64,000 bases of DNA from a virus (lineage: Duplodnaviria > Caudoviricetes). The notes beneath the pieces are model-generated. The model did no database searches, was not told the origin of the DNA, and was given only the letters and a program-made list of their open reading frames with translations. Below, piece after piece: positions 2,107 through 57,961 of the stretch. Position 1 is the first letter of the stretch, and each line of letters begins with the position of its first letter. Location: positions 32,001 through 96,000 of IMG/VR virus record IMGVR_UViG_3300033121_000983. The stretch is one strand, 5' to 3'. A program made the position numbers and the translations under genes.

Positions 2107-2130
2107 GTTTCCTTTAACGTTAAACGAAAC
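2107..2130. promoter_or_regulatory. ACGT-centred palindrome, site 1 (GTTTCCTTTAACGTTAAACGAAAC)
   Basis: 24-bp near-perfect palindrome; the same consensus recurs at six other sites. Confidence 0.65.
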
Positions 2131-2191
2131 GTGGTGCTGTTTCGCGACTGCTGGTCGCCGCGCACGTCTGCGTGCGCGTAGTTTTTGCGAC

Positions 2192-2788
2192 TTATTCTGG
2201 GTGGAATTTCGTGCAATTCTGGAGCGTAAGATTGCGCTGTTTTTTCGGTTTCAGAACCGTGTTGAGCGCGGTTTGCACTTCATTTTCGTCGTCAAGCGCC
2301 TTGCGCTGTGCGTTTGCCATCTCGTGACTGAGCTTGTTTAGTCGAATTTCGTCACGGCCCCACCAGTGCCAGCGCGTAAATATACCGAGGTGTTCTGCCG
2401 TGACGAACGGTGCCCACAGCACAGGCTGACCGCGACGCAGCGCTGGGTTGTTCCCGGCATCTGCGACGTGCTGGCAGTCCGTAATAATGTGCAGCCGTAA
2501 CGCCTGACTTGCGCCACCAGCTTTACGCCGGTGCTGTCGGCAGATATCCAGCAGCGGGTGCACGTAGGCCATCGTTTCCGCCACGATGTTAGAGCCGCCA
2601 AAATTCATGCGCCCGCCGTACCACTGGCGACGGTTGTGGCGATCAATCAGTACGCTGGCCCAGCCACATGCGCGTTCGCGGGTGGTGCCGCTGCCGTCGC
2701 CAATCAGCACGAAATCCCAGCGCACAATTTTCAGTTTGTCGAGCACGCGCTGCAGCGCGTTGTTACGGTAGTCTTTCTTTTCAGTCAC
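2192..2788 (-). CDS. RNase H-like (RNase HI fold) protein
   Basis: Motifs LIGDGSG..GWA, NIVAETMA, LHIITDCQHV and WHWW...LNKLSHEMA. Start moved to GTG 2788, which has AGGA upstream; the track start at 2833 lies inside a terminator hairpin. Confidence 0.75.
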   Translation of the reverse strand: MTEKKDYRNNALQRVLDKLKIVRWDFVLIGDGSGTTRERACGWASVLIDRHNRRQWYGGRMNFGGSNIVAETMAYVHPLLDICRQHRRKAGGASQALRLHIITDCQHVADAGNNPALRRGQPVLWAPFVTAEHLGIFTRWHWWGRDEIRLNKLSHEMANAQRKALDDENEVQTALNTVLKPKKQRNLTLQNCTKFHPE

Positions 2789-2807
2789 CTGGTGTCCTAG
2801 TAAAGCA

Positions 2808-2850
2808 AAACAGGCGTGGAGCAGCCTAGCCACTCCACGCCTGTTTGTTT
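2808..2850. terminator. Bidirectional intrinsic terminator
   Basis: 14-bp perfect stem AAACAGGCGTGGAG/CTCCACGCCTGTTT with T-rich tails on both strands. Confidence 0.7.
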
Positions 2851-2857
2851 GTCGTGC

Positions 2858-3280
2858 TTACGCCGGTTCGTCGTGCGGCGTGTCGTCCGTAATTACTGAC
2901 CCGTACGTCCGCGGCGTCCGCAGGTACGCGTGCAGCGTATCGTTAATCAGGTTGGCAACTCGGCTGATCGCCAGTCCGTAGACGGGCAACAGCAGCCAAG
3001 GCGTGAATTGACCGGCGTGGTTTACCAGTTCGATGTAGCTAACTGCCGCCAATCCCAGCGGCACGCTGAAGCACCACGGACACATCCGCACTTTGTGCCA
3101 CCACCACTGCAGCTCCGCACTTAAGCGGAATGGTGCTGCCGTCTCCACAGTCGAGTGAGCATCCAGCCATTGCGTGATGCTTTCGCGTTTACGTTCGAAC
3201 AGCTCGCTGTGGTGCCAGACTTCCACTGTCTGATTCACCGCCAGCGCGCAAATTGCCAGATCCGTCAAATCCCAGTGCAC
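2858..3280 (-). CDS. Small membrane protein with CPWC motif (DUF1360-like)
   Basis: Hydrophobic segments and MCPWCFSV. Confidence 0.55.
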   Translation of the reverse strand: MHWDLTDLAICALAVNQTVEVWHHSELFERKRESITQWLDAHSTVETAAPFRLSAELQWWWHKVRMCPWCFSVPLGLAAVSYIELVNHAGQFTPWLLLPVYGLAISRVANLINDTLHAYLRTPRTYGSVITDDTPHDEPA

Positions 3281-3287
3281 AGTTCAC

Positions 3288-3944: not shown

Positions 3945-6900
3945 ATGTTGTACATGCGAAAGCCGTCGCGCGCCGAACAGCGCCGACTCCACCAGCTTAC
4001 CGATCCTGGGCGTCGCCGAGAAGACGCGATTGCTGCAGCGCAGGCGCGACGCCAGCCTGCCGATATTGCGGCGCGTATCATCACGGAACACTTGAGCGCT
4101 GAACTGTCGTTAGAAACACAGGCACAGACAGCCATTGATCAGCTGCGCCACGCGCTTTCTGGTACACAGCGGACAGCGCCCGGTAGCCTTGTGAGCTTCT
4201 TGCCCGGTATCTTTCGGCTTAACGGGCAGCCCTATACACTTGACCGGCATTTTGTGTTTGAGCCGTTGTTCGAAACGCGGATGCCGTTGAGCATCACCGT
4301 TAAGAGCGGCCGCCAGGTCGGGAAATGTGTCCGCGTCTCCAGCGAACCAACAGTCTGGATGGCGGACGGTCGGCTCATCGGCACTGCCGATGTGCAGGCG
4401 GGCGACGCGCTACTCAGTTACGACGCGCACTTTCGGCCGGTTAAGGGCCGCGTGGTCAACATCTTCAATAGCGGCGTGAAACGCTGCTACCGCGTCACCA
4501 CGCGCTTGGGCGCCGAGCTGGAGATCACGAAACAGCACCGCATCCGGACGCTCTCTGGCTACAAGCGACTAGAGCAGCTACAGGTCGGCGATCGCATCTG
4601 TGCCGCCCGGCGTTCGGGTATTTTCGGCGCGCAGCGCGTGCCGGAAGCGCGCGTCGTGCTGACTGCATTACTGCTTGGAGATGGCAACTGCGGTACAGCG
4701 CGAACGTGTACGCTAACCAGTGAGACGGATGCCGTTATCACGGCAGCTCAGCAATGGCCTACGTTGGCGCCGGTCTGTATGGTTCGGCCGCGCGGCGGTG
4801 CAACGCGGGAAATTATCTTCTCGCGCGATGCGTGTTATCCGCTACGACAGTGGTTAAATGAGGATGGTCTGTGGGGTAAGTACTCCTATGAAAAGACAAT
4901 CCCAGCCTGGGTCTTCCGGTTGTCTCGCGTGCAGACGCGGCAGTTCATCTCATGGCTGTTCGCCACCGACGGCTCGCTCAAGGCGCCGCGTACGGTAGAG
5001 TATTACTCCACCAGCCGCACGCTAGCCCGACAGGTCCGCAGTCTGCTGGCGAAGTTCGGCATCCCTGCGAGTATCACGCCAAAGGCCGCTGGTTATCGCA
5101 CCGCAGACGGAACATACAAACGCTGCCGCGACACCTGGACTGTCCGCGTAGAGACGCGCAGCGGTCTGATGGCGTTCTTCGAGAACTTTGACGTGCCCGG
5201 TCGCCCGGCGTTTTCTTTGCGCGACGTCGTCGAAAACAATAATCGCGACACGCTCCCGCAGGCAGAAACTCAAGCGTTGATTGACCAGCTGGCCGTTGGG
5301 TTGCGCGGTAAGCACCGCACGTCATTTGCTACAAGCGGTCTGCGCCAGACGCTCAAGTACCCGCCACAGCGCGCGAAGGTGCGTGCATACTGCGGGCACT
5401 TCCGTAAACACGAAGCACCGACCCAGTTTATTGAGTCGCTAGAGACCGCGTGTTCTGAAGACGTCATCTGGGACGAGATTGTCAGCATCGTCGACATCGG
5501 CAAACACGAGACTGTCGACTTTGAAGTGGACGATGAACACAATTTCGTGCTCGACGGTATCGACGTTCACAACAGTCAGACGCAAGCCGCGCGTCTGATT
5601 GCCATGTGCGCGACGTTTGCAAACTTTCGCGTGCTTGTTGTCATGCCGCTGTTCGAATTGGTGCGTAAGTTCAGCTCCAATTACGTACGGCCGATGATCA
5701 CCACGTCGCCGTTGGCTTCACTGTGGCAGGATCCTACGAACGCAGGTAACGTCCTGCAGCGTAACTTCCGTCACAACGATTCTACGATTTTCTTCTCCTT
5801 CGCTTCGACGAGTGCGGATCGTACCCGCGGTGTGCCGGCAACTTGTCTGGCGATCGACGAGTTGCAGGATATCGACATTTCGTTCATCCCCATCATGCGC
5901 GAAACGATGTCGGGCTCTCCGTACCCGAACATCGAAATCAAGACTGGTACTCCCAAGACCTACGACAACACCATGCAGGTCGAATGGGAAGATACATCGG
6001 CCGCTGAATACATGGTGCGTTGCCGCGCGTGCAACAAGGAAAACTATCCGCGGGCTGACCTAGACCTCGAGGCCATGATGGGCCCCAGGATTGTCACGCG
6101 TCCGATTACTCCGCGCGAACCAGGAATTGTGTGCGCTAAGTGCGGCCGACCTATCAACCCACGCGCTGACGGACGTTGGATCCACACCAACCCCGAGCAA
6201 CGTGGACTGAACGACGGCCTGCATATTCCGCAGATCGTGGTTCCGCAGCACTACGAAAACGATACACGCTGGCGGTTGCTACAGGCGAAGCGTCGCGGCG
6301 AAATGAACACGCCGGCTTACGCGTTCTTTAACGAAGTTCTGGGTGAGAGCTACGACACCGGCTCGAAGCTGGTGACGATTGAGGATCTTCGTCGAATCGC
6401 CATCCTGCATGAAAACAAGTTGGCGACTGCGTTGACGCTCGACCCATCACGCTACATTCGCCGTGTGCTTGGAGTGGACTGGGGTGGCGGCGGTGAGGAC
6501 ATGATCAGCTATACCACCGTGGCTGTCGTCGGTATGCGCCCAGACGGCGTGCTGGAAGTTATTTACGGCTGGCGCTGTCCGAACATTCATGATCACAACT
6601 TGGAAGTGCGCACAATCCTGCGCCTGTTCTCGCTGTTCAAGTGCCACTTTATCGCACACGACTTCAACGGCATCGGTGACCTACAGGAAACGATGATGCA
6701 CAACGCAGGGTTCCCTGCAGAGCTCATTCATCCTGTGAGCTACATCGCACACGCAAACGGCGCAATGATGATCGAGGTCCCCGCTAACGAAGATACGCAC
6801 CAGCGCTGGCATTTCCGGCTCGTGAAATCGCGCAGCCTGACATTCCTGGCGCGCTTGATTCGTCAGCAGCGCGTGCTGACGTTCCAGTACGACTACAAGC

Positions 6901-7187
6901 ACCAAGGGGACCGCGGCTTGCTGCGCGACTTTACCACGCTGGTCCAGGACTTTCTGGATAGCCGCGCGGGACGCAATATCTACAACGTGCTGCACAATAA
7001 GAAGCTGGGGCCTGACGACTTTGCGCATGCCGTGAACTACGCGGCGTGTACGTTGTTTCATGATCGCGGCGTCTGGCCATCATTGCTGGAAACGACGTCA
7101 GAAGACGCGGAGTTCGAGATCGCTAACGTGCCATCATTGTCCAGCATCATGTCGAGCCCGTTCGACACGCGTGCTGAAATTTTCTAG
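3945..7187 (+). CDS. terL: Terminase large subunit (GpA-like) containing an intein
   Basis: Walker A SGRQVGK|S split by the intein; Walker B LAIDELQD; GTPKT coupling motif; CRAC/CAKC Zn finger; nuclease motifs GVDWGG and DDFAHAVNY. Confidence 0.92.
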   Translation: MLYMRKPSRAEQRRLHQLTDPGRRREDAIAAAQARRQPADIAARIITEHLSAELSLETQAQTAIDQLRHALSGTQRTAPGSLVSFLPGIFRLNGQPYTLDRHFVFEPLFETRMPLSITVKSGRQVGKCVRVSSEPTVWMADGRLIGTADVQAGDALLSYDAHFRPVKGRVVNIFNSGVKRCYRVTTRLGAELEITKQHRIRTLSGYKRLEQLQVGDRICAARRSGIFGAQRVPEARVVLTALLLGDGNCGTARTCTLTSETDAVITAAQQWPTLAPVCMVRPRGGATREIIFSRDACYPLRQWLNEDGLWGKYSYEKTIPAWVFRLSRVQTRQFISWLFATDGSLKAPRTVEYYSTSRTLARQVRSLLAKFGIPASITPKAAGYRTADGTYKRCRDTWTVRVETRSGLMAFFENFDVPGRPAFSLRDVVENNNRDTLPQAETQALIDQLAVGLRGKHRTSFATSGLRQTLKYPPQRAKVRAYCGHFRKHEAPTQFIESLETACSEDVIWDEIVSIVDIGKHETVDFEVDDEHNFVLDGIDVHNSQTQAARLIAMCATFANFRVLVVMPLFELVRKFSSNYVRPMITTSPLASLWQDPTNAGNVLQRNFRHNDSTIFFSFASTSADRTRGVPATCLAIDELQDIDISFIPIMRETMSGSPYPNIEIKTGTPKTYDNTMQVEWEDTSAAEYMVRCRACNKENYPRADLDLEAMMGPRIVTRPITPREPGIVCAKCGRPINPRADGRWIHTNPEQRGLNDGLHIPQIVVPQHYENDTRWRLLQAKRRGEMNTPAYAFFNEVLGESYDTGSKLVTIEDLRRIAILHENKLATALTLDPSRYIRRVLGVDWGGGGEDMISYTTVAVVGMRPDGVLEVIYGWRCPNIHDHNLEVRTILRLFSLFKCHFIAHDFNGIGDLQETMMHNAGFPAELIHPVSYIAHANGAMMIEVPANEDTHQRWHFRLVKSRSLTFLARLIRQQRVLTFQYDYKHQGDRGLLRDFTTLVQDFLDSRAGRNIYNVLHNKKLGPDDFAHAVNYAACTLFHDRGVWPSLLETTSEDAEFEIANVPSLSSIMSSPFDTRAEIF
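4326..5573 (+). mobile_element. Intein (416 aa) with LAGLIDADG homing endonuclease, inserted in the terminase Walker A
   Basis: Starts with Cys (CVRVSS), has block B ITKQHRI and LAGLIDADG blocks TALLLGDG and SWLFATDG, and ends DGIDVHN followed by Ser. Confidence 0.93.
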
Positions 7188-7207
7188 TTTTACTGGGCAC
7201 GTTGCTT

Positions 7208-7325
7208 GTCGGTACTGTGCGGACCGTTTATGATATGCGCAACGCCGGACACCTTATTCAGGTGCTCACGTCGTCGCCGTTCTGGGTCTCGCCAACCCTA
7301 CCCCGTCCGCAGTCACTGTGCCGAC
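7208..7325. ncRNA. Candidate structured RNA element between convergent genes
   Basis: Closing stems GTCGGTAC/GTGCCGAC and TGCGGAC/GTCCGCA enclose further hairpins. Confidence 0.3.
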
Positions 7326-7336
7326 TGTGTACAAAG

Positions 7337-7371
7337 AAGCCTGCACCTCTCACTGTGTGCAGGCTTTTTTT
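7337..7371. terminator. Bidirectional intrinsic terminator
   Basis: Stem AAGCCTGCAC/GTGCAGGCTT, a T run on + and TTCTTT on -; lies between convergent genes. Confidence 0.8.
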
Positions 7372-10009: not shown

Positions 10010-10011
10010 CA

Positions 10012-11190
10012 ATGCAATCCATTTTTCGTAACGGCGATCAGCTCAACGAACAAGCTGTAAGTCGTGTCGCGCAGCTCTACGACTTGCCGGACTACGTGAA
10101 AACCGCCGACGTCGATGATGCTTTTCCGTCGCAGACACGTCAATTGCCGGCTACGGTCTTTGGTGATGCTCACACGCGATCCTTCGCTGTACACACTAAG
10201 GCGGCGTGCTGGTTAGCCGCTGTGGACTTCGAAGAGCAGCGTGCACGGTTCTCTGCGAAGTACGCGGCCCGGGTGGAAGCGGCAATCACGAAAGCCGCAT
10301 CCGCATGGGGTATTCTGCCAGACGTTGAGCGCGTCCGCAACGCGGCTACGGCGATGCGGCAAACTTCACTGGAAAAACTGGCCGATTCCGAGTTCGCGCT
10401 GGTGCGTCAGCTTGGCAACCAGGTTGAGCGTCAGTACCCGCTGCGCAACGCCGCTGAAGTGGCCGCGGCTGCTGCGTGGCTGCACAAGTACGCAGCTGAG
10501 TTTCCTCGACGCGATCGCCAGAAAATCGCGCAGCGCATCGTGGATCGTTGCGACGACACCGGAGCGGCAATTGATAGCGCTACCCGGGAATTCCTCGACA
10601 AGGTCGCCGGTTACGGCGTCCCGGATTGCCGACAGTTTGGCGCTGCCATTGTGCAGCGCAGCAACATGATCGGTAACCCTACGCTGGCGCGCGAGTTGCT
10701 GAAAGTCGCGGGACTGCTGCACTCCGCTGTCGACGGTCAACCGCTGTCGCCGGACGTGTTGGACGGCATGCTCGACAACCTCGACGTGCTTGATCGCAAC
10801 TACAAGTTCACCGCACGTTACGGACGAGATCTGACGCTGCCGGAAGAAGCGTGTTACGCCGTCGGGCTGCACAAAGCGGCAGAGACGCTGCGCGACGTCG
10901 TGCAGCTTACGTCAGGGCATGTCTACACGAAGGACGCGCTGGCAGAACTGCCGTTGTCGAGCGTGACGGATGTGTTCGGAGAGGACATCGCCGCGCAGTG
11001 CTCCAGCGATGGGCTGTTCGTTGACCGCGAAAAACTCGCAGAAGTTGCCGCTGTCTTGCCTCGCCCAGATGCGATGACACTGCACTCGTTGCTGCAGCGG
11101 CACGGCGTGCAGGAACTCGTCGACAAGACTGCGGCAACGGCGGCTCCGCGGCTGACACACGACGACTGGATCGCGCTTGTCCCGGCGTAG
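10012..11190 (+). CDS. Hypothetical K-x-A-rich protein, predicted head-internal or maturation substrate
   Basis: ATG 10012 with AGGAG 6 nt upstream. 13 of 14 Lys lie in K-x-A, as in the head-cluster proteins. Confidence 0.7.
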   Translation: MQSIFRNGDQLNEQAVSRVAQLYDLPDYVKTADVDDAFPSQTRQLPATVFGDAHTRSFAVHTKAACWLAAVDFEEQRARFSAKYAARVEAAITKAASAWGILPDVERVRNAATAMRQTSLEKLADSEFALVRQLGNQVERQYPLRNAAEVAAAAAWLHKYAAEFPRRDRQKIAQRIVDRCDDTGAAIDSATREFLDKVAGYGVPDCRQFGAAIVQRSNMIGNPTLARELLKVAGLLHSAVDGQPLSPDVLDGMLDNLDVLDRNYKFTARYGRDLTLPEEACYAVGLHKAAETLRDVVQLTSGHVYTKDALAELPLSSVTDVFGEDIAAQCSSDGLFVDREKLAEVAAVLPRPDAMTLHSLLQRHGVQELVDKTAATAAPRLTHDDWIALVPA

Positions 11191-11212
11191 TTTCCTTTGA
11201 CGTTAAATCAAA
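11191..11212. promoter_or_regulatory. ACGT-centred palindrome, site 2 (TTTCCTTTGACGTTAAATCAAA)
   Basis: Fills the gap between convergent genes; 18 bp are identical to site 6. Confidence 0.65.
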
Positions 11213-11919
11213 GTCATCGCGTCGCCGTTCTCGAGCGGCAGCTGCTGTAGCTGTGCCATAAGCTGCCGCAGCAGGAGCTGCGTGTCGTCGGCCATGTCAT
11301 CGGCGTCATCTTGTTTGGCGCCGAGAACGCCTGTGGCTTCGGTCGGATTACCCAGCGCTAGCGAATCGTAGTCTGGCTGGAAATAGCTGCCAGCGGCCAC
11401 GCGTAGCACGTTAGGCGGGCTGTAAAGACCTTCCTCGCGCAACAGCTTGCCAATGAAAGCGGAGATCTCAGGCACGAACAGTTGTTCCGTGCCGTACTCC
11501 TCATCCGGCAGCAGCAGCATCGCTTCCGTAATCGCCCAGGCGCATTCTCGCGTGTCCGGCAGTGCTACGATATCGAACCGTAGACCGTTGCCGCAGAGCG
11601 CCTCAGTAAGCGTGCAGAACATCGGCTGCCGCTGAAAGAAGTCGTCAGTCTGCACGATGCTCATCGCAGCCATGAGCTTGCCGAAGTTGAACTTGTCCAG
11701 ACGGATTCGGTAATCTTCGGCAAGCTCATGCTGCAAGGTAGACGGGGTCCAGTCCAGGCATTCGAGCCCGAACCGATCAACACAGAACGTCAACAGCGTT
11801 GTGCCAAATACGTCGTCGCCGTGAAACAGCCGTAACAACTCCGGCTCTGTCAGCTTGCGGCGGACATTAACCGGCGTGTCGTTGTCCGACAACAGTACAG
11901 AGTTGGCAGCTGCCGACAT
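11203..11919 (-). CDS. Hypothetical protein
   Basis: 238-aa ORF with globular, protein-like composition in operon context. Confidence 0.7.
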   Translation of the reverse strand: MSAAANSVLLSDNDTPVNVRRKLTEPELLRLFHGDDVFGTTLLTFCVDRFGLECLDWTPSTLQHELAEDYRIRLDKFNFGKLMAAMSIVQTDDFFQRQPMFCTLTEALCGNGLRFDIVALPDTRECAWAITEAMLLLPDEEYGTEQLFVPEISAFIGKLLREEGLYSPPNVLRVAAGSYFQPDYDSLALGNPTEATGVLGAKQDDADDMADDTQLLLRQLMAQLQQLPLENGDAMTLI

Positions 11920-12325: not shown

Positions 12326-12347
12326 CTTTCAGACTCCTAATAGACTT

Positions 12348-31794: not shown

Positions 31795-31802
31795 GGGAAT
31801 AC

Positions 31803-33998: not shown

Positions 33999-34001
33999 CG
34001 G

Positions 34002-34802: not shown

Positions 34803-34814
34803 CGGTGGTTCCTG

Positions 34815-34836
34815 ATTGCTTTAACGTCAATTGAAA
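34815..34836. promoter_or_regulatory. ACGT-centred palindrome, site 4 (ATTGCTTTAACGTCAATTGAAA)
   Basis: Immediately upstream of the matrixin start codon. Confidence 0.55.
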
Positions 34837-34863
34837 CGTCAAACACCAGTGTACCGCCGTGCT

Positions 34864-36528
34864 TTATGTTTCTGGAACCTCAACAGTCGCGACAGTGATA
34901 CTGACGTCCCGCGAGTCCAGGAAAAAGGCTACCGTCTTGCCGGTTGTCATACTGCCGGGGTCGTTAGGCACCACCAGCATGTCGCGCGATGACGAAGTCA
35001 CCACCGTACCGTCCGGCTGCCGCAGCGTACCCACCAACAGCATTGCTGCGATCGCGGAATTGCGCGGCAGGTACGACTGTACAAGCTCTGCAAGGATAGA
35101 CGCGGGCAGTCGACCTGTGAAACTGAATTGTCCATTTACCAGATCCGCCAGCGCTGTCGCCACGGTCTCGGTGTCGACCTCGGCTTCGGCGTTTTCCGGC
35201 AACTCCAGGCTGATACCGAGCTGCACGAAACACGGCACGGGTGCGCGCACCAGCACGTCAGCGGCCGCGTGCACGCGGCTGAGTTGCGTTACGTAGTCAC
35301 TGATGTCCGCGATCAGTGGCATCGACCGCAACACGCAGTCGTAGTCGCGCGTTGTACCGATGTCGTCGGCGGTCACAGGTGTGTCAACATCGGCAAACTG
35401 CAGCACGATAGTCTGGAACCGACTATACGCAGCCTCAGCAGCGTCTGTGATATCTGGCAACCGAGCCCCGTCAATTGCCGACAGATCAATGCCGCGCGTG
35501 TCGCTGACGACAGCGTAAGTGCCTTCGGTTGTGGCCTCGGTGCCTTCCTGCACGATGCGCGGCACGTCGTACACACCTGCGGCTTCGTCGCGCGTAAACG
35601 TTAGCTGCCAAATCCCGTTGCCGGCAGAGTTACGGCTCACCAGTGTCGCCGTTTTGGTGCTGGACGTCAGACGCGCGTTGCTCTGTGTGCGAATGTACCA
35701 ATCTACGCGACCGCCGGTTGCGCCAGGCCAAAGGGCATGCCGGTCGCGCAGCATCTCAGCGTCACCGAACCCGATGATGGATGACGCTACACACCCCGCG
35801 AAATCGGGCTGCGCCAGCAACAGCGCACGCATGGACGGGCGATCGGACAGTGTCTGCGAGGCGACGCCGGTGAGCAGGCGCTCGATTAACGATGCATTCG
35901 ACTCGCCGTCCGTTCCGCCTGTAAAGTCGGCAGACGCGAATGACTTCACATAATTCAACGGCGGTGACGCCAGCGTCAACAGCGTGTCTTTAGCCAGCAA
36001 CCCCGCGGCTCCGGGCTCTTCATCGGTCACGTCGATCGTGAACGCGTAGTTGCCGTCTGGCAGCGGCGTCAGCACTTTATCAGAGTCGGATTGCCGTAAT
36101 GACGACGCTGTGCGCGCGACAAATGCGCGAGTAGGCACGAATGTTCGGCCGTTTGCCGAAAACACCGCGCCTGCGGGAATCACAACTGTCTGCAGCGCAG
36201 ACACAACGATCGTCAGCGGACCACTGGCGTTTGCACCGGCGCGCCGCGTTAGGCGGAAATTTGCCGCAACGTTATCGACGATGTCATCGTCAGCCAGCGT
36301 AGGATCTGCTGCGATGTAGGCGAGTGATTGCGACCGCTGGAGTCGCGTAAATTCCTCGGCGCGTTTCGCCGCCAGCACGCCCGCCAGGCGCGTCAGTACG
36401 CTGCCCAACGCGCCGCGGCGTGCATCGACTTCCGGCGCGTACGCCTCCAGCGTGGCACCGAGCTGCGCGGATAGGCTCTGCACAGTCGCCAGGTCCAGCG
36501 ACAGCAGGTCATCGATCTGAATGGGCAT
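34864..36528 (-). CDS. Baseplate J-like wedge protein
   Basis: LTRRAGANASG, VIPAGAVF, FTGGTDGES and GRVDWY motifs; follows the gp25-like gene. Confidence 0.85.
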   Translation of the reverse strand: MPIQIDDLLSLDLATVQSLSAQLGATLEAYAPEVDARRGALGSVLTRLAGVLAAKRAEEFTRLQRSQSLAYIAADPTLADDDIVDNVAANFRLTRRAGANASGPLTIVVSALQTVVIPAGAVFSANGRTFVPTRAFVARTASSLRQSDSDKVLTPLPDGNYAFTIDVTDEEPGAAGLLAKDTLLTLASPPLNYVKSFASADFTGGTDGESNASLIERLLTGVASQTLSDRPSMRALLLAQPDFAGCVASSIIGFGDAEMLRDRHALWPGATGGRVDWYIRTQSNARLTSSTKTATLVSRNSAGNGIWQLTFTRDEAAGVYDVPRIVQEGTEATTEGTYAVVSDTRGIDLSAIDGARLPDITDAAEAAYSRFQTIVLQFADVDTPVTADDIGTTRDYDCVLRSMPLIADISDYVTQLSRVHAAADVLVRAPVPCFVQLGISLELPENAEAEVDTETVATALADLVNGQFSFTGRLPASILAELVQSYLPRNSAIAAMLLVGTLRQPDGTVVTSSSRDMLVVPNDPGSMTTGKTVAFFLDSRDVSITVATVEVPET

Positions 36529-36536
36529 GGAACATC

Positions 36537-37025
36537 TCACACCGTGCCAAGGGAGAAATTAGCAGGCAGCAAGTATACCGCAGATGCCCCGGCCTGTGAT
36601 GTGACTGTGAACGTCACGCCGGCGTAATCGCCGGAAAACAGCACGTTCTGCGACTGAATCTGCGCCAAACGCTCATCGGCGGGATCCGTTTCCAGCTCTT
36701 CGTTGACCAGATTACGCGCTGCTCGCTGCGCTGCTCGGGTGAATGCCGACAACAGCCCGGCAGGCGTGCGCACCGCACCGCTGCGTAATTCGGTCAAATA
36801 GCCGGTACCGCGCTCGGGAAAGTAAGGCTCCGACCCGGCATCCTGCAGAAGCTCCAGGAACACGCGCTGCGCCAGCTTTTGCAGACCGGCTGTGATAGTC
36901 CCACCGGTCGCCGGGAGCGCCAACGCCAGCGCGACTTCCTGCGGCATATCGGTGACGTTGATATCCCGCGGGTGCAGCACAAGCAGATCGACCTGGCGAC
37001 CGATGTAGTCGTTTGCTGAAACCAT
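36537..37025 (-). CDS. gp25/GPW-like baseplate wedge (sheath initiator)
   Basis: GLQKLAQ...LL...GS...PERGT pattern; lies upstream of baseplate J. Confidence 0.75.
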   Translation of the reverse strand: MVSANDYIGRQVDLLVLHPRDINVTDMPQEVALALALPATGGTITAGLQKLAQRVFLELLQDAGSEPYFPERGTGYLTELRSGAVRTPAGLLSAFTRAAQRAARNLVNEELETDPADERLAQIQSQNVLFSGDYAGVTFTVTSQAGASAVYLLPANFSLGTV

Positions 37026-46023: not shown

Positions 46024-46032
46024 TACTGTTTC

Positions 46033-48744
46033 CTAGTCGAAGGGGATGATCGGGTAGTTGTCTTGCGGCGCGCGACGTTCCGTCGTCGGCGGGTCGCGCG
46101 TCTCATAAAGCTCCTCCGCGCGGTCGACATCGCGACCAGTCTGCGGATCATGCAGTTGTAAATCTGTCGTACGATAACGTCCAGTCTCCGAGCCCGTCCA
46201 GGCTGTATAGCCCGGCCACGGCATCAGCGGCTGTGACTTGTATTCCACGGCTGTCTCTGACCAACCTTCGAGCGTATTACCGGCAGTGCGTGCGAGCTGC
46301 TGCCAGTGTGTTTCGTCGAGAATTAGATTCTGCGTGCCGTACTGGGCCTCGTCGCGGTAACTGAATGCCATGCCGGCGATAAGATCTGCGGCACCAATTG
46401 CTGTTTTCTCGCCTTCGGCATAGAGATCAGCCAGCGTATCCTCGTAGTACTGCTGGTTATCTTCGTTGGCAGTCGCGAATGCGTCGTTTGTTTCCTGCAG
46501 TGCAGCCTCGAGCGCGGTCAGCGCCGACGGGTCGTCGAAGGCGTTTACGCGGCCATCGTAGTTACCTGCGAACTCCGTCGTAATGTGTCCGCCTTTGATA
46601 CGCACATCGCCGTTGGCGGAGATGCCGCCGTCCAGCACGCTGAGGGCACCACCTGCGGTTAGCGTGCCGGCAAAAGCGGCGTCAGTTTCGGTCAGCGTGT
46701 GCGATGCGCGAGGATCCCCATTGGCCGGGAACACGAACGAGCTGCTGCTTTCCAAGCGGGAGTACATGTCACGCGCGATAATCACCACGTCGTCTGTACC
46801 AATTCCGGCATCCAGCACGATGTTACCTGGGTCAATGCCGCTGTCGCGGCCGCCGGTGCGCATGTAGACACCAGCGCTGTAGGTCTGCAGGCGCGCGTTG
46901 CTGGCCCTCAATACAATTCCGCTGCCCAGCAGGTCCTCGCCGACGGCATTTTCAGGGTAATCGTGGTCGAGCGTCGTTGCTTTATTCTCCAGCAGCAGTC
47001 GCCCGACGCCGCTGCAGCCCGACACGGCTTCCAGGTTGTTCTCGGCTTTCAAGCGCAGATCGCCGGTCGTGCTGGTTACATCGACGCTACGGTTAGCGCG
47101 AAGTACGACGTCGTCGCCAGCTAACACAACCGCCTGCCGTCCAACGCTGATGTGCATGTCGGCGGGAGCGCTTAGACGAATCGAGCCGTCAGTGCCCATC
47201 ACGATCGACTGCCCGGCCGGTCCGATGATCGATACGGAGCCATCAGCGTTGATGAGCCAGCCGGATGTTGTTTCGTAATAATTTTCTGACGGCTGGCGGT
47301 GGTCAACGCGCACCGGAACGGCAGTCGGTGCGGGCAATGCCTGTTCGCTGCTCAATTGTGTGAAGTCTGGTGCGGTCGTTGCAGCCTGCGGCAGTGCGGA
47401 CGGTTCAGCCAGTGTGTAATCCGCTACGTGTTGCACAAAAGGTGCGACGCTTTTCCAGTTAACCGCGTGGGCGATCGTGTCAAGCGGCGCAGCTGGCGGT
47501 GTACCGAGCGTATATGCAGCCTCGCCCTCAGTGGTAAGTCCGGCCGTCGCATAGTTGTCTGCGGTATCGCCCTGCGGATCTTCCGGCATGCGCGCAAGGC
47601 GAATACTCGGCAGCGACGAACGCTTGAGCACTGCCAGCGATTTCGCGCTGATCAGTGAGTAGCTGCCGTCGAGACCGACACTCTCACGGAAAACAACCAG
47701 TTCAGGTCGTGTACTATCAGCGGCGTTACGCTCGTCAGACTCCGGCGGGACGACGACTTCCCGCATGCCGCCTTGCCCGAGATACCCGGCATATTCCCGC
47801 ACGCGCCAGAACGGCGCCAATGTGGTGGTCAGCGGTTCGCGGTCAGCATCAGCGCCGCTTGTCTGCACAGTCGCGGCGTCGTTACGCTGGCTGAACCCGG
47901 TGACGGCGTGCTTGAGCCTCCCTAGCGCTTCCCAGGCGTACGGTGCGATCCCGCGCATGCTGGCGATTTCGTTACCGTCATTCCGCCAGAACTCCTGAGA
48001 CCCTGCCGTCCAGATGTCGAGGTTGTCGCCGGCCAGGCGCGCGAGTCGATGCAGGTAATGAAACCAGACACCGCAGCGTTCATCCGCGCGCAGTCCGCAC
48101 ATCAGTAGATCGACGATCAACCCGCCACCCAGCGGCGATAGCAGCGCACGAACAGCGGCGGTCTGGTCGAGCGGTCGATTTGCGGCGTAATCGCGGGCAC
48201 CGGCGTCGCGCAAGCAGTTTTCTACGACAGCGCGGTAGGTCTGTTCTTTCGACGCTCCGATGCTGGTGCCCTGCGTGATGTAATCGCCGATTAGGGCAGC
48301 GGCGTCTGTGGTTTGCGGTGGCAATACGCCCAGGATGTAGCCGACAGGGTTTTCACCAGTAATTGCCAGAATCACCTGACTGTTGGCTGCTGGCAGTGCA
48401 ACGTCAATCGTCGACAACGCTGATGACGCAGTCGTCATCGCTGGCACACACCAGCGCTCTGATTGTCCGCCGCCGATAAGCACCCGACAGACGTTGAGCG
48501 TCGGGTACGAGAACATCACCGTGCCGAGCTGTAGCTGCGTCGCGCTGGCAACACCGCCGACAGCGTAACGATGCAGGCGTTCGGCAGCCTGCGGATCGTT
48601 CGTACCGTCGAATAACGTGCGTAGTTCGTTAGGCAGCGAGTTAAACGCACGTTCCAGCTGTTTGACGTAAAACAGCATATCGTTGATCGGCGCCGGCGCT
48701 GCCTTGATATCCGCGTCGAGATATTCCTCGCCGTACACAGCCAT
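46033..48744 (-). CDS. gp5/VgrG-like baseplate central spike protein
   Basis: N-terminal OB-fold-like segment (LPAANSQVIL) and beta-helix repeats (INADGSVSIIG, GTDGSIRLSA, GDLRLKAENNL). Confidence 0.75.
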   Translation of the reverse strand: MAVYGEEYLDADIKAAPAPINDMLFYVKQLERAFNSLPNELRTLFDGTNDPQAAERLHRYAVGGVASATQLQLGTVMFSYPTLNVCRVLIGGGQSERWCVPAMTTASSALSTIDVALPAANSQVILAITGENPVGYILGVLPPQTTDAAALIGDYITQGTSIGASKEQTYRAVVENCLRDAGARDYAANRPLDQTAAVRALLSPLGGGLIVDLLMCGLRADERCGVWFHYLHRLARLAGDNLDIWTAGSQEFWRNDGNEIASMRGIAPYAWEALGRLKHAVTGFSQRNDAATVQTSGADADREPLTTTLAPFWRVREYAGYLGQGGMREVVVPPESDERNAADSTRPELVVFRESVGLDGSYSLISAKSLAVLKRSSLPSIRLARMPEDPQGDTADNYATAGLTTEGEAAYTLGTPPAAPLDTIAHAVNWKSVAPFVQHVADYTLAEPSALPQAATTAPDFTQLSSEQALPAPTAVPVRVDHRQPSENYYETTSGWLINADGSVSIIGPAGQSIVMGTDGSIRLSAPADMHISVGRQAVVLAGDDVVLRANRSVDVTSTTGDLRLKAENNLEAVSGCSGVGRLLLENKATTLDHDYPENAVGEDLLGSGIVLRASNARLQTYSAGVYMRTGGRDSGIDPGNIVLDAGIGTDDVVIIARDMYSRLESSSSFVFPANGDPRASHTLTETDAAFAGTLTAGGALSVLDGGISANGDVRIKGGHITTEFAGNYDGRVNAFDDPSALTALEAALQETNDAFATANEDNQQYYEDTLADLYAEGEKTAIGAADLIAGMAFSYRDEAQYGTQNLILDETHWQQLARTAGNTLEGWSETAVEYKSQPLMPWPGYTAWTGSETGRYRTTDLQLHDPQTGRDVDRAEELYETRDPPTTERRAPQDNYPIIPFD
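48657..48676. promoter_or_regulatory. ACGT-centred palindrome, site 5, inside a CDS (GCTGTTTGACGTAAAACAGC)
   Basis: 7-bp inverted arms around the shared core. Confidence 0.4.
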
Positions 48745-48756
48745 GGCGTGTTCCGC

Positions 48757-48794
48757 AAAAGCTAACAGCGGCGAGGTCAGGTCCTCGCCGCTGT
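48757..48794 (-). terminator. Intrinsic terminator after the tail tube gene
   Basis: 12-bp perfect stem ACAGCGGCGAGG/CCTCGCCGCTGT followed by TAGCTTTT on -. Confidence 0.65.
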
Positions 48795-48825
48795 CACTAT
48801 ACCAACTGTACTGCGCGAATCACAC

Positions 48826-49338: not shown

Positions 49339-49356
49339 GTTGGACTCCGTATGTTG

Positions 49357-49384
49357 CGCTTTGGTTTGACGTTAAATCAAAGCG
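49357..49384. promoter_or_regulatory. ACGT-centred palindrome, site 6 (CGCTTTGGTTTGACGTTAAATCAAAGCG)
   Basis: 28-bp near-perfect palindrome in the sheath-tube spacer. Confidence 0.65.
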
Positions 49385-49391
49385 GTTGGGT

Positions 49392-52196
49392 TTAGCCGAT
49401 TACCAGGTACAGTTCTGGGTTGTTCAGCGGGATCGGGTAAGTCGGCACCAGCACGATCACCAGGTGATCGAGCAGCACCGTGGATTGCGCGATCGACTCG
49501 ACCGTGCAGTCTGTAACCTGGCCGCCGAGCGTCGCGACGAAGTTTCGCGTGCGCAGCACCGCGATTCCGCTTTCCAGCTGCACGCGCAGTGAGTTGATGG
49601 CTTGCGGCGTGATGTTGGTCTTACCGACGAGTGGCCGTAACAGATCGAGGAAGTAGTACGACGTATCGTCCGGATTGCGGACAAGCACTTCTTCTCGGCT
49701 GTAGAGCTGGTCGTACGGAGCAGTGGTGATGGCGTGGCGACTGAAGATCGCGCCAGTCTGGCGATCCTGCGTCACCACGTTGATCCCTGACGCTGCCAGG
49801 ATATCCAGCTGCGTCGAGCGGAAGTGGCGCGTGGAGCGTGTCACGGATGAGAATCCGTTGATTGCGACGTTCGTCAGACCTTGCTGCGGTACGACGCCGG
49901 ATTGCAGGCCTGCGAACGCGCAGCACACGAAGTACCCCGGCAGCACGTAGTCGCCGTCTTCGATCGTATCCGGCCAGAACAGGCTGACGCGCAGGTTGGA
50001 GAACCCGTGCGTAGCCAGTTCCGTCGCTTCCGCGGTCGGTGTCAGATTGCGCCACACCTCGATTTTGGCCGCGACGTTAACCGCCGCATCCAGCCCGCTG
50101 CGTAGGCGCAATGTGTCTTCGTTGATCACGGCGTCGACCACACGCTCGGTATACGATTCGTTACCGAATCCATCCGTCGTGTAGAGGAGCCGCACGATGT
50201 CGCCAGCCTGCACGCCGTTGGTGACGAAATCGGCATTCGCAGCCGGAACGCGCACCAACGTGTACTGAGTCCCTGACGTATCCGGATCGTCCAGCACCGT
50301 CGCCAGCACAACCTCGCTGTCTTCGGACGTTGCGGCGGTCACCAACGCTTTTTCCGGCATCCCTTCGAGCGCGAAGAGCGCTTGGCGCCAGCGTCCGTTC
50401 GTTGCGGAGCTCTGCGCAACTACGTGCGCTTCATAGAGGTTCCAGATCGCGCGATCGCGAGTCAGCGGCACGAGCCCGTAGACATCGTCGCGGCCGTCAA
50501 GCAGTGAGAGCACTTCTTCCCAGCTTTCGCTGTCGGACGGATCGCACACGGCGCTCCAGCGTACAGGCAGGCCGTTGGAGTTGGCACGGGCTTTCAGCAC
50601 GCCGTACTTGAGCGGATTGTCGGGATGTGACGGCCCGGGGATATCGGCGTAGTCGTCATCCGTAGCGCACGTGTAGACGTCGCCGCAGTAATCCGAGCGC
50701 CAGGCGCGGTATTCGACGTAGACGCCGCCGTAGCTCTTCGACGATTCGCTGATCACCGACAACGCAACCGGCGTACCGCCGTCGGTCCACGACTCGTGGA
50801 ACGCGGTGATGCCGCTGTTCAGCGTAATCTCGGTTGCCGACTGATCCCAGTTGGTCAGCGGGGCCGAGCCGATGCGGTTAGCGGTCACCTGCAGTTCCGG
50901 CACCTTAATGTACAGCGAGAGCGACACTTCCGTCGCGCCGTTGTCGATGACTTCTTGCGGCAGGCTGTGACCAAGCTTCAGCGTGCTGATGCGACCTTCT
51001 GTCGCGGCGGTCACTGCGACCAGGAAGCGATCACCCTTACGCAGCCGCGTACCGCTCAGCGCAATTTGCGCGCCGTACGTACCAATGGCAACCGCGCTGG
51101 TTGACGTGACGTTCGTGGGACCACTCAGATCGATACCGGTCGTGGTTGACACGGTGATTTGCGGCGGTGCGTCCGTGTCGGCGTACAAGCCGCCGCGGGT
51201 CACTTCCACGATGTAAGTGGTGTCGGCGGTGCCGGTATAGGTCCCGGATGACGTTGGCGTGGTGGCGGTGAAGGCCTGGCCGCACTCAACGACGAACTGC
51301 TGACCGGCGATGAAGTCGATCGGCGACACGCCTTCGGCGATTGCCGCGTCGCTACACTCGGACCCGCTGGTGTTGTCCCAGGTGACCGTCAACCCGCGCG
51401 TACCGATTTCAGTCGGATCGCCGAACGCAGCCGGCGTGACGTCTTCCACGTCGTCGTTACCGCTGGCGCTCTGCACGCGCAGCACGGCGGTCGTGGCGTC
51501 GCCGTCAACGGAGCTTTCGACAACCGTGATGGTGTACGTTTCGTTGATATCGCCGTCCACCAGCCCGTCGTAACTGGTTTGATCAACATCAGTGATCACC
51601 ACGCAGTTTTCGGCACCGGCGGACTGTGTGTCGGTTGGCGAGGGCGCACTTTGCGTCGCAGCGTTGTCGCCGTCAGCTGCGGCTGCCGCGGTCACGGCTG
51701 CGACGACTTCTGCCATGAAGCCCGCCACGTACGTCCACAGTTCGTAGGCGTCGGAACCAACAACTGCGCGCACTTTGGCGATATCGCCGACCGCAACGTC
51801 ACGATCGAGGAATTCGTCCGAGCGCGGGTACGCGGCGCCGTTGGCGCGGAACGCCAGTGTGTCGGCGACCAGCCGGTTGGCGTAGTCTTCGACGGTGGAG
51901 ATTGTGTCGCCGCTCGACAGATCGTCGTCGAAGTAACTCAGCAGCGCGTCCTTGATGAAGACCTTGGTGTAGTCTTCGTCGATCAGACCGCCAGCCACAC
52001 GACTCGGCCAGTCGAAGCTGGCGTCAACCAGCGGGTCGTAATAATCCAGAAAGCCGTCGGCCCGCTCGTCGTCTTCGGCGAACCGAACGAGTTGCGCCAG
52101 GCCCCCGGAAATGTGGGCTGCCAGCACGCGCTGCGTTGGCGCGGCTACCGTATTGCGCTGCTGAAAAACCAACGCTTGCGGGACTTGGTATGCCAT
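49392..52196 (-). CDS. Tail sheath protein with extra inserted domains
   Basis: MAYQVPQALVFQ N-terminus; C-terminal sheath motifs QGLTN, LDILAASGI, RHAITT and PIPLNN. Confidence 0.88.
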   Translation of the reverse strand: MAYQVPQALVFQQRNTVAAPTQRVLAAHISGGLAQLVRFAEDDERADGFLDYYDPLVDASFDWPSRVAGGLIDEDYTKVFIKDALLSYFDDDLSSGDTISTVEDYANRLVADTLAFRANGAAYPRSDEFLDRDVAVGDIAKVRAVVGSDAYELWTYVAGFMAEVVAAVTAAAAADGDNAATQSAPSPTDTQSAGAENCVVITDVDQTSYDGLVDGDINETYTITVVESSVDGDATTAVLRVQSASGNDDVEDVTPAAFGDPTEIGTRGLTVTWDNTSGSECSDAAIAEGVSPIDFIAGQQFVVECGQAFTATTPTSSGTYTGTADTTYIVEVTRGGLYADTDAPPQITVSTTTGIDLSGPTNVTSTSAVAIGTYGAQIALSGTRLRKGDRFLVAVTAATEGRISTLKLGHSLPQEVIDNGATEVSLSLYIKVPELQVTANRIGSAPLTNWDQSATEITLNSGITAFHESWTDGGTPVALSVISESSKSYGGVYVEYRAWRSDYCGDVYTCATDDDYADIPGPSHPDNPLKYGVLKARANSNGLPVRWSAVCDPSDSESWEEVLSLLDGRDDVYGLVPLTRDRAIWNLYEAHVVAQSSATNGRWRQALFALEGMPEKALVTAATSEDSEVVLATVLDDPDTSGTQYTLVRVPAANADFVTNGVQAGDIVRLLYTTDGFGNESYTERVVDAVINEDTLRLRSGLDAAVNVAAKIEVWRNLTPTAEATELATHGFSNLRVSLFWPDTIEDGDYVLPGYFVCCAFAGLQSGVVPQQGLTNVAINGFSSVTRSTRHFRSTQLDILAASGINVVTQDRQTGAIFSRHAITTAPYDQLYSREEVLVRNPDDTSYYFLDLLRPLVGKTNITPQAINSLRVQLESGIAVLRTRNFVATLGGQVTDCTVESIAQSTVLLDHLVIVLVPTYPIPLNNPELYLVIG

Positions 52197-52208
52197 CGTG
52201 CATTCTTC

Positions 52209-52913: not shown

Positions 52914-53016
52914 AGCTGCTCGCGCCGCTCGCGTAGATCAGCGGATTCGTACGTCATCAGGTTGTACCGCGGTAACAGCGGATTGGTCGGCGGTTTTGGC
53001 GGCGGTTTTGGTGTCG

Positions 53017-53880: not shown

Positions 53881-53884
53881 CGTG

Positions 53885-54817: not shown

Positions 54818-54825
54818 GGGAGATC

Positions 54826-56055: not shown

Positions 56056-56844
56056 TTAGCAAATCAGACTTGTGAGAGGGTTGAGTGACACGTCAGGGCC
56101 GACGAATTGACCGCCGGAAAGGACGTGCGCATCGGGCAACCGGTTGAGCAAGCCAGTATAGCGTGTGCGGGAATCCGCAAACAGCATCGCTACTTCTGCC
56201 GCGTTCATACCGTAGTCGCGGATTTGAATATCGTCGATTTGACCCTGCATGAATAGCGAAGGACTTTGCGTGGCGCCGATGGTCAGCTTTGGTGCGACAG
56301 TGATCGCGCCTCCGGCCGTGCCTGTTGCGCGCGACGTACCGTTGACGTACATCGTCAGCGCACCGGCGATGTTCGCGCAGCAGATGTGCGCCCACGTGTT
56401 AAGTGCCAACACGTCGTTCGCCTGTACTGACGGACTACCGGACATCCAGTAGAGCCAGATGCTGAACGCAAACTGATTAAAAAGCAGACCATCTCCGGCG
56501 GCTGATGCGTACAGCGACATAGGCACATGTGAAGCACTCGCGCCGTCCGTAGGTCGGATCCACATCGAGAGCGTGCCGTTATTCCCGAGAATCAGTTTGG
56601 ATGAGGCGTTCGACGCGACACCGTAACTGGTTGTGCCGGGAGTATCCACGGACCCGAAGAGGCCGTGATTGGCGTTGTTACCAAACACAGCCCCGCCTGT
56701 CATGGCGACGTGGTGGAAATTGGCCAGGTCGTACCACGTCTTGCCTGCGTCAAGCGGCGGTAGCGTGAGCCACCAGCCCAGTAATCCACGCGAGAGCGGG
56801 GACATCGGGTTTACCGCGTTTGTCACGTCGACTAAAACTGGCAT
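56056..56844 (-). CDS. LamG / concanavalin A-like domain protein
   Basis: GLLGWW, TLSMWIRP, LNTWAHIC, MYVNG and GQIDDIQI motifs. Confidence 0.85.
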   Translation of the reverse strand: MPVLVDVTNAVNPMSPLSRGLLGWWLTLPPLDAGKTWYDLANFHHVAMTGGAVFGNNANHGLFGSVDTPGTTSYGVASNASSKLILGNNGTLSMWIRPTDGASASHVPMSLYASAAGDGLLFNQFAFSIWLYWMSGSPSVQANDVLALNTWAHICCANIAGALTMYVNGTSRATGTAGGAITVAPKLTIGATQSPSLFMQGQIDDIQIRDYGMNAAEVAMLFADSRTRYTGLLNRLPDAHVLSGGQFVGPDVSLNPLTSLIC

Positions 56845-56850
56845 CGCGCA

Positions 56851-57294
56851 CTAACCATTCTGATAAGTGTAGGGGCGAATCTTCAGCGTGTTGGCGCTGG
56901 CTGCGAGTGATTGGCCTGTGCCGTCGTTCTTGGCCAGGACCTTCAGTTTCCCCGGCGGGAGATTCGCACGGCGAATAATCCGCTGCACCGTTGTCACTGC
57001 ACGCACGGGAATGACGAGGTCTGGGCGTCGCGCCGGCGTAGTTGAGGCGTCGCCGTCTTCGTAGTTCGTACCATCCTGCGACTGCAGGAACCAGATCGCG
57101 ATGCCCGTACCGGCAGTGGGGTTGGTGCCGAACTGAACGACAAGCTCCACGTCAGCAAGTACGTACCCGTTCCCGGCAGCGCCGTAGGTGTTATCAAACC
57201 CGGCCGAAATGTTCAGAGCGTTGTTCGCGAGTGAGTTGAGTTCCGTGGTAAGGACCGAGGTCTGGGAACCTAGAACAAACGATGTTGTTCGCAT
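56851..57294 (-). CDS. Hypothetical beta-rich virion accessory protein
   Basis: 147 aa; first gene of the LamG cassette. Confidence 0.7.
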   Translation of the reverse strand: MRTTSFVLGSQTSVLTTELNSLANNALNISAGFDNTYGAAGNGYVLADVELVVQFGTNPTAGTGIAIWFLQSQDGTNYEDGDASTTPARRPDLVIPVRAVTTVQRIIRRANLPPGKLKVLAKNDGTGQSLAASANTLKIRPYTYQNG

Positions 57295-57544
57295 TATCTC
57301 TCAACTTTCCAAGAGTGTCGTTAGTACCGGCTATAGACCCATGCGTTTCGCGTCGTCCCGCACGTTGGGGTTTGAGCACTCCCCAGCTGTGATGCCCGGC
57401 GCTACACCGAGGAAGGTGAGTACCGCGAGCAGCGCAGTTTGGCGAGTTGCTCGCATAATCTGAATTCCGCTAGTCAGAACACAACAGGCGGTCGACCTCG
57501 TGTGCGAGATCGCCGCCCGTCGTGCCCCTGGGAAGAGTTCCGAA

Positions 57545-57907
57545 CTACGCGACCTCGCTGGTCCAGCAAGGATCGATCGTACTCAGCGTATCGTTGTCGA
57601 GCACCAGCTGCTTCGTCGCAGCGAGTGTGGCGTCATACAGAGCGACTGCCGGAGTGCTGACGATTTCCAGCGCGGCATCGCCGTCTGTGTTATCGCCCAT
57701 CGCCGACAGCAGCCCATCGGTCCAGTGTGCGCCGCCGCGATCGCCGTACGACCCACGCGCAACGCTGTCAGGCAGGCTGCCGAGCACGGCGAACTCTTCG
57801 TCGTCGTCGAGCTCGACACCTCGCGGCCCGAGGAAGCCGAAGTAGCGGCTTGCGCCGCTGATGTTACGCACGACCGTGAACAAGCACGACGTGTCCATAG
57901 CTGCCAT
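57545..57907 (-). CDS. Hypothetical head-cluster protein
   Basis: GAGGAG RBS; 120 aa. Confidence 0.75.
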   Translation of the reverse strand: MAAMDTSCLFTVVRNISGASRYFGFLGPRGVELDDDEEFAVLGSLPDSVARGSYGDRGGAHWTDGLLSAMGDNTDGDAALEIVSTPAVALYDATLAATKQLVLDNDTLSTIDPCWTSEVA

Positions 57908-57939
57908 GTTCTATCTCCTCTTACCGCAACGCGCGGCAG

Positions 57940-57961
57940 TTTGCTTTAACGTTTAACCGAA
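57940..57961. promoter_or_regulatory. ACGT-centred palindrome, site 7 (TTTGCTTTAACGTTTAACCGAA)
   Basis: Sits inside a longer inverted repeat ACGCGCGG...CCGCGCGT. Confidence 0.55.

Follow-up and report, generated by a model that had tools for sequence, protein, structure and literature searches.

The window examined here, 64,000 nucleotides that form bases 32001-96000 of the 106,166-bp IMG/VR virus contig IMGVR_UViG_3300033121_000983 (Duplodnaviria; Caudoviricetes), carries six strong copies of an AT-rich near-palindrome and a gene for a Rep-like protein with a Cys4 zinc finger, and the relation between the two is the subject of this report. The contig has a G+C content of 60% and a CheckV completeness estimate of 52%. 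Genes were called with a hexamer model trained on long open reading frames and checked by homology to a relative, and 92 of the 96 called genes are on the minus strand. PHROG matches identify the large terminase, a baseplate wedge protein and the sheath protein (Table 1), while most other proteins of the contig have no family match. No close relative was found among cultured phages with megablast and tblastn, the nearest cultured-phage sheath proteins, from Salmonella phage Arash and Vibrio phages, being 25-30% identical. Metagenomes contain 383 homologues of the sheath protein, many on contigs of 150-240 kb.

A sequence-only reading of the window had reported an ACGT-centred palindrome at seven sites. 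The 12-bp core, TTTRACGTYAAA, is present at all seven places and, with at most one mismatch, is found 7 times in the window compared with 0.16 times in dinucleotide shuffles. The full element is a near-palindrome of ∼26 bp in which the half nGTTTssTTTRAC adjoins GTYAAAssAAACn. Scores of a symmetric 26-bp weight matrix over the whole contig are bimodal: the ten strong sites range from 29.6 to 42.2, a single partial site reaches 17.8, and no other position exceeds 7.7. Four of the strong sites and the partial site lie outside the window; two of the ten were outside the seed set and are still recovered by the scan. Leave-one-out scores range from 25.9 to 40.5, compared with a background maximum of 17.5. 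The real sequence contains 11 hits of at least 15 bits and shuffles that keep protein sequence and codon usage contain 1.1. The fifth of the seven places (48657-48676) carries the core only, scores within the background over 26 bp and is not a member of the set; the other copies keep their original numbers.

The similarities first described between individual copies are confirmed: copies 2 and 6 share 18 bp, TTTGACGTTAAATCAAAG, copies 1 and 2 share AGTTTCCTTTRACGTTAAA, and copy 3 has perfect arms of 11 bp. The dyad is only partial, with halves that are unequal. Over the ten sites, the downstream half in the direction of the genes has 8 mismatches to GTYAAASSAAACT and the upstream half has 22; the downstream half is the better conserved in eight of the ten sites, which constitutes an orientation bias. 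The energies of the sites as DNA hairpins are between -0.5 and -9 kcal/mol, with five of ten weaker than -2. Complementarity is not kept at the variable 'ss' dinucleotides, and no T-run follows the motif sites. The stable GC-rich hairpin and T-run of an intrinsic terminator are thus missing from the sites, and ordinary terminators of that type, a class of their own, are found in other gaps of this genome. No sigma-70-like promoter (-35 and -10 hexamers 16-18 bp apart) is predicted at copies 6 and 7 in a consensus scan of window positions 44000-60000, and none was seen at the remaining sites by manual inspection, in line with the earlier view that the palindrome is not simply a promoter. Because the sequence is conserved and the hairpin potential is not, the motif is best read as a double-stranded sequence signal that is neither the terminator of this phage nor, by consensus scan, a sigma-70 promoter.

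The ten sites are spaced evenly along the contig at distances of 4.2-19.4 kb (mean 11 kb), with a coefficient of variation (CV) of 0.41 (P 0.006 versus uniform random placement). Eight are intergenic, though intergenic sequence makes up 6.6% of the contig, and the apparent coding location of the site at contig 5263 rests on a doubtful open reading frame of 59 codons. Two of the window sites had been placed in coding sequence; only copy 3 is truly intragenic, occupying codons 66-74 of gene 29302-30804, where 5 of 11 codons end in G or C compared with a fraction of 0.70 for the whole gene. Intergenic sites lie 1-38 nt past the upstream stop codon and 23-43 nt before the start codon where a gene follows closely. 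Copy 1 precedes the Rep-like gene, at 177 nt from the GTG start codon. Copy 2 fills the 12-nt gap between genes 9994-11190 (+) and 11203-11919 (-), and the convergent arrangement first proposed for it holds; both genes have orthologues in the same orientation in a relative. Copy 4, in the 61-nt gap behind the wedge gene (34864-36528), is 23 nt upstream of the start codon (ATG) of the matrixin-like gene 34002-34802. Copy 6, 32 nt upstream of the ATG of gene 48826-49338, is alone in the 53-nt gap that separates this gene from the sheath gene. A longer, GC-rich inverted repeat encloses copy 7, which is located 43 nt upstream of the ATG of gene 57545-57907.

Table 1. Motif sites, candidate binder gene and other features (window positions unless marked as contig)
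Feature	Position	Strand	Details
Motif copy 1, AGTTTCCTTTAACGTTAAACGAAACG	2106..2131	-	score 40.6, leave-one-out 38.8; intergenic
Motif copy 2	11189..11214	-	score 39.7
Motif copy 3	30584..30609	-	score 39.6; best palindrome of the set
Motif copy 4	34813..34838	-	score 30.8
Motif copy 6	49358..49383	-	score 32.7
Motif copy 7	57938..57963	-	score 37.4
Former site 5, non-member	48661..48672		12-bp core; 26-bp score 2.5
Strong motif sites outside the window	contig 5263, 13188, 26650, 104943		matrix scan
Partial motif site outside the window	contig 331		matrix scan
Rep-like gene (P0121), candidate binder	670..1941	-	423 residues; Cys4 zinc finger; fold probably related to rolling-circle Rep; near-invariant Tyr-Pro; no HUH histidines
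Large terminase gene	3945..7187	+	PHROG match
Baseplate wedge gene	34864..36540		PHROG match
Sheath gene	49392..52196		PHROG match
Intrinsic terminator after terminase gene	7188..7369		A-run, hairpin, T-run; usable in both directions
Intrinsic terminator	48745..48825		after gene 48826-49338, the gene next to the sheath gene

The family was compared through 18 IMG/VR loci with a sheath homologue, one of which is the record of the relative G001 again. G001 (IMGVR_UViG_3300028581_000011; 185 kb, 89% complete, sheath 50% identical) contains no copy of the window phage's motif. A different palindrome, TAATTAGCGCTAATTA, is present there in 13 perfect copies and a fourteenth with one mismatch; it extends to ∼24 bp and has the 14-copy motif GATGTAATTAGCGCTAATTACATC, and 16 bp are identical among 13 of the copies. 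The G001 copies are mostly intergenic and evenly spaced (CV 0.41, P 0.0009; P 5e-5 with a close pair merged), and their flanks, read by eye, follow a similar orientation trend. The two genomes are syntenic and share four orthologous site pairs: ahead of the Rep-like gene, at the convergent junction (copy 2 and G001 61381), after the wedge gene (copy 4 and G001 90213), and between the sheath gene and the next gene (copy 6 and G001 104112). The sites of a fifth pair are one gene apart. A fragment from a closer relative, L031 (sheath 72% identical), has two orthologous sites, at 12830 (copy 6) and at 1226 (copy 7, where the downstream genes are 61% identical orthologues); their outer arms are as in the window and the central 6 bp are changed in both copies. 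Apart from the palindrome, the sheath gap of the window phage, of G001 and of L031 has no element; in 15 other relatives it contains an ordinary GC-rich hairpin, usually followed by a T-run. Places that are conserved, with a sequence that is uniform within a genome and different between genomes, are what co-evolution with a specific binding protein would be expected to produce.

Neither palindromic k-mers nor intergenic 8-mers revealed a dispersed motif in the relatives G002 and G004. This absence is weakly established, because palindromic k-mer counting misses degenerate sets, including that of the window phage itself, and was abandoned as a motif detector in relatives. A promoter box, GTGAYTAAMCG, in the sheath gap of several relatives is no commoner than a reversed-pattern control in five genomes and reflects local orthologous conservation only. 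The wedge gene is followed by a block of 6-7 genes that is largely unrelated between the two genomes (window 30808-34802; G001 86698-90193) and is headed in each by its own palindrome, and in two other relatives the next gene comes directly after the wedge gene. The idea drawn from these cassettes, that palindromes mark the boundaries of accessory cassettes, was rejected, since the junctions of conserved with unique genes show no enrichment of sites (P 0.93 and 0.73).

Motif copies adjoin the Rep-like gene in four genomic contexts. The G001 homologue of the protein is 24% identical (E 2e-7), and its gene is flanked by two G001 palindromes. Homologues are scarce, with 11 among 1.84 billion representative proteins. 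A 70%-identical homologue is encoded on the 9.8-kb fragment L074 (JGI 3300056808 contig Ga0558721_22715), where three copies of the window phage's own motif lie within ∼200 nt of the start of the gene and none is present in the other 9.6 kb. L075 encodes a homologue of 38% identity, with another palindrome, of 42 bp, in the corresponding place. A profile search detects the Rep-like gene in 14 of the 18 IMG/VR relatives, and a long palindrome is found upstream of the homologue in most of nine further relatives examined. This gene-side palindrome is single-copy in G013, G007, G015 and G016 and is present in three copies in G011; the contigs of two distant homologues (P0128, P0133) are too short to inform on context.

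The three G011 copies belong to an intergenic cassette of ∼115 bp, nearly identical at its three locations around 61099, 141528 and 171315 (loci L089, L090 and L091), that combines a bidirectional terminator with an AT-rich stretch, a palindrome of 31 bp and a leader; one of the cassettes precedes the Rep-like gene. On L074 (5427-9367), phage-derived genes that are 70-81% identical to those of the window phage abut genes of Planctomycete type (PSCyt1/PSCyt2/PSD1, DUF1501), a mixture that may point to a Planctomycete host, to a prophage remnant or to chimeric assembly. Phyletic profiling was dropped as evidence for the link: tblastn had placed the Rep-like gene only in palindrome-carrying genomes, and the profile search overturned this. 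Another candidate binder was rejected as well, a protein resembling the C-terminal domain of RNA polymerase alpha: relatives without dispersed palindromes have it, and the contig lacks it. This protein is encoded in G001 at 50015-50476 (-), directly after the Rep-like gene (153 residues; PF03118, E 6e-12), and has homologues in G002, G003 and G004, with none found in the window phage's contig.

The identity of the Rep-like protein is approached through an alignment of 21 members and through predicted structures. Four cysteines are invariant in the alignment and no histidine is conserved in it. Tyr356, a candidate for the catalytic tyrosine of a Rep nuclease, is present in 20 of 21 members and is followed by the invariant Pro357, and a Glu-Pro pair is conserved on a core strand. 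Two independent AlphaFold models were obtained, with pLDDT of 70 and 88. The best solved-structure match of both is the Rep protein ORF119 of the archaeal virus SIRV1 (VIA-align; Z 8.5 and 7.5), and Rep nuclease domains of Helitrons and circoviruses are also among the matches. In the ESM Atlas, structure matches to Rep_1 clusters reach TM scores of 0.61 and 0.59 over 245-260 residues, and for the G001 homologue, REP_ORF2-G2P clusters account for 24 of 30 feature hits. Sequence searches against PHROGs, Pfam and PDB gave no significant match for the window protein; among the 21 members, one has a Pfam Rep_1 match (E 0.0048) and one a Zn_Tnp_IS91 match (E 0.1). From the models and these faint signals, the protein is probably a relative of rolling-circle initiators. 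The histidine-hydrophobic-histidine (HUH) motif that defines HUH proteins does not appear in the alignment, which would leave the protein outside that group as judged by sequence.

The explanation favored here, with a probability of roughly one in two, is that a single phage-encoded protein recognises all the sites as copies of its double-stranded target sequence, and the Rep-like zinc-finger protein is the best candidate for it. A dispersed site bound by a phage-encoded protein, beyond a simple promoter or terminator, is supported because the sequence is conserved without a hairpin, terminators form a separate class, and a relative has a different palindrome at orthologous places. The ancestral state would be one long palindrome just upstream of the Rep-like gene, much as rolling-circle initiators have their origin or operator next to the rep gene or within it. 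From this single site, which was likely later amplified in some lineages, copies would have spread to about one per 11 kb in the window phage and likewise, with different sequences, in at least two relatives. The copies would be kept mainly in short intergenic gaps, evenly spaced and mostly in one orientation along an almost unidirectional gene array, and all would drift along as the specificity of the protein drifts. Under the preferred version, the sites may serve as co-oriented loading or nicking points for replication or recombination along the ∼200-kb genome, which fits the even spacing, the common orientation on a unidirectional genome and descent from a single site at the rep-like gene. 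About equally possible is that the Rep-like protein controls transcription globally, as a regulator or a roadblock where transcription units begin and end, and the loss of the HUH motif fits this version. The replication and transcription versions are inseparable from sequence data alone. The sequence-only reading had named several functions without choosing; the link to the Rep-like gene narrows that choice and does not settle it.

Several observations weigh against this explanation or against its replication version. The link between protein and sites rests on adjacency and co-variation, and with ∼10 sites per 90 gaps a copy near any given gene is expected at ∼8% in a single genome. The conserved gene at window 2192-2788 is equally adjacent to a site and may be an alternative binder. 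Presence of the Rep-like gene does not predict amplification, as most of the 14 relatives that have it have one palindrome. For the protein itself, solved-structure scores are 'middling' by the scale of the tool, with generic ferredoxin-like folds (GGDEF, ribosomal S6) scoring nearly equally (Z ∼6), and Foldseek returned no match. At the HUH position the sequence is x-U-I-E-P-P (Glu in 15 and Pro in 20 of the 21 members); nuclease activity of the protein is doubtful because no conserved histidine is found there. Finally, several G001 and G011 copies come immediately behind an intrinsic terminator, 24-36 nt upstream of a start codon that has a ribosome-binding site, which looks like the position of a promoter or operator and would favor a role in transcription.

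This placement is also central to a broader alternative, possible though on the whole unlikely, in which the sites are stoperator-like operators or roadblocks of a global transcription regulator, whether the Rep-like protein or another. Placed at the head or the end of transcription units of ∼11 kb, they would switch or insulate blocks of late genes. Intergenic sites are 23-43 nt from start codons that have ribosome-binding sites, three G001 sites and all three G011 copies lie between an intrinsic terminator and a ribosome-binding site with ATG, the orientation bias tracks the direction of transcription, and one site stands at the end of a minus-strand operon, facing the convergent gene. In cluster A mycobacteriophages, stoperators are asymmetric sites of 13-14 bp bound by the monomeric helix-turn-helix immunity repressor of a temperate phage (PMC9283540, PMC6550527). 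The window phage resembles them in having tens of genome-wide copies, mostly in short intergenic gaps and with an orientation biased by transcription (ten sites in 106 kb, eight of ten polar), and in a motif sequence that is phage-specific, as expected when the sites co-evolve with the phage's own binding protein, as cluster A stoperators do with their repressors (PMC6550527, PMC9283540). It differs from them in its 26-bp partial dyad, in the Rep-like nature of the linked protein and in the family's lack of a detected integrase.

Other observations argue against a regulator. Copies 6 and 7, the only two in the scanned stretch, lack a predicted promoter, and the start codon is too near the site center for the geometry of a class II activator. 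A lysogeny repressor is unlikely, since no tyrosine integrase was found in 17 of the 18 family genomes and two complete family genomes have direct terminal repeats; the family appears lytic, and a role in lysogenic immunity is correspondingly unlikely as far as gene content indicates. No helix-turn-helix candidate was found among ∼30 proteins scanned, serine integrases and helix-turn-helix repressors not having been searched systematically. Nor does this alternative specifically predict the even spacing. The stoperator idea of the sequence-only reading is still a serious alternative: the dispersed, mostly intergenic and oriented sites speak for it, and against it speak the tyrosine integrase undetected in 17 of 18 genomes and the only linked binder candidate, which is Rep-like and not a helix-turn-helix repressor.

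Doubtful, too, is a more specific form of the replication hypothesis, in which the origin-like site of a Rep-type initiator has multiplied to ∼20 evenly spaced, gene-co-oriented copies for nicking, replication or recombination at many points, or in which the system is a virus-borne counterpart of REP sequences and RAYT proteins, site and protein specificity drifting together. In rolling-circle replicons, such as those of the pC194/pUB110 Rep_1 family and phage P2 with its gene A and ori, the double-strand origin lies beside or inside the rep gene. The phages studied here are similar in that the candidate binder appears Rep-related by fold and weak sequence signals and in that a replicon-specific inverted repeat lies beside its own gene in nearly every family member. 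They are unlike such replicons in having 10-14 dispersed copies rather than one, in lacking the HUH histidines, and in being tailed phages with ∼200-kb genomes and, in complete relatives, terminal repeats. REP sequences are dispersed extragenic palindromes of bacterial chromosomes that are associated with RAYT (TnpA-REP) proteins (PMC3337134, PMC3479197, PMC8266576). Similarities include short extragenic palindromes in many dispersed, genome-specific copies and a single gene, here one probably related to the HUH superfamily, flanked by copies, an arrangement matched in G001 only. However, RAYTs have an intact HUH motif and belong to the Y1 transposases of the IS200/IS605 type, and the protein here resembles Rep_1 without HUH; REPs are recognised as folded single strands and half of the sites here cannot fold; and tens of regularly spaced copies in a viral replicon contrast with hundreds. 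Neither a flanked Y1 HUH transposase gene nor a set of repeats that all fold is seen.

A role of the sites as RNA or DNA hairpins, whether intercistronic terminators, attenuators, RNase processing sites or stabilisers of mRNA, homogenised in each genome by gene conversion, is improbable. Such hairpins would explain why the palindrome alone occupies the sheath gap where 15 other relatives have a GC-rich hairpin, why copy 2 takes the place of a bidirectional terminator between convergent genes, and why the G001 copies are perfect palindromes. However, five of the ten sites have almost no folding energy, the mismatches of copy 6 on the mRNA strand are A.C and not G.U, T-runs are missing after the sites, and canonical terminators are present elsewhere in the genome. 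The 16 bp identical in 13 G001 copies would be unneeded for an element defined by structure only.

Most improbable is the analogy to bacterial parS that the sequence-only reading had drawn, with the sites as centromere-like or chromosome-organising sequences bound by a ParB/KorB-type protein: like parS and the RK2 KorB operators, which are 13-16 bp palindromes dispersed in and between genes, the sites are dispersed and largely independent of gene position, an organising role would suit their even spacing, and the G001 core TTAGCGCTAA resembles what we take to be the RK2 KorB operator, TTTAGCSGCTAAA, but no ParB_N (PF02195) match was found in the palindrome-carrying genomes examined, that is the contig (52% complete), G001 (89%, 14 palindromes) and G011 (98%, 3 palindromes), and the family appears lytic, with terminal repeats. 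The only ParB_N match is in G013.

The uncultured phages of this family, with genomes of 150-240 kb, are abundant in metagenomes and have almost no genes of known function, and a defined DNA signal together with a single candidate protein provides a handle on their replication or regulation. We found no description in the literature of the family or its repeats, nor of a dispersed, regularly spaced set of phage sites tied to a Rep-like zinc-finger protein. If the sites are points of initiation or nicking, they would represent a multi-origin strategy not described for tailed phages, with the even spacing as evidence of selection on origin placement. If they are regulatory, a lytic jumbo phage would have recruited a protein of the Rep superfamily for global control of the stoperator kind. 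In both cases, a motif that changes in step between relatives would offer a natural series for studying the co-evolution of a protein and its DNA site.

Two further features were recorded apart from the sites. The terminase is 1080 residues long, and its main PHROG match spans residues 535-1037 only, which leaves a long unexplained N-terminal part. At the start of the G001 contig (∼787-1989; also locus L020), ∼35 tandem units of 35 bp contain the boxes AGTAAYCA and GACAACAKCA separated by 7 variable bases, and the array resembles an iteron or centromere array.

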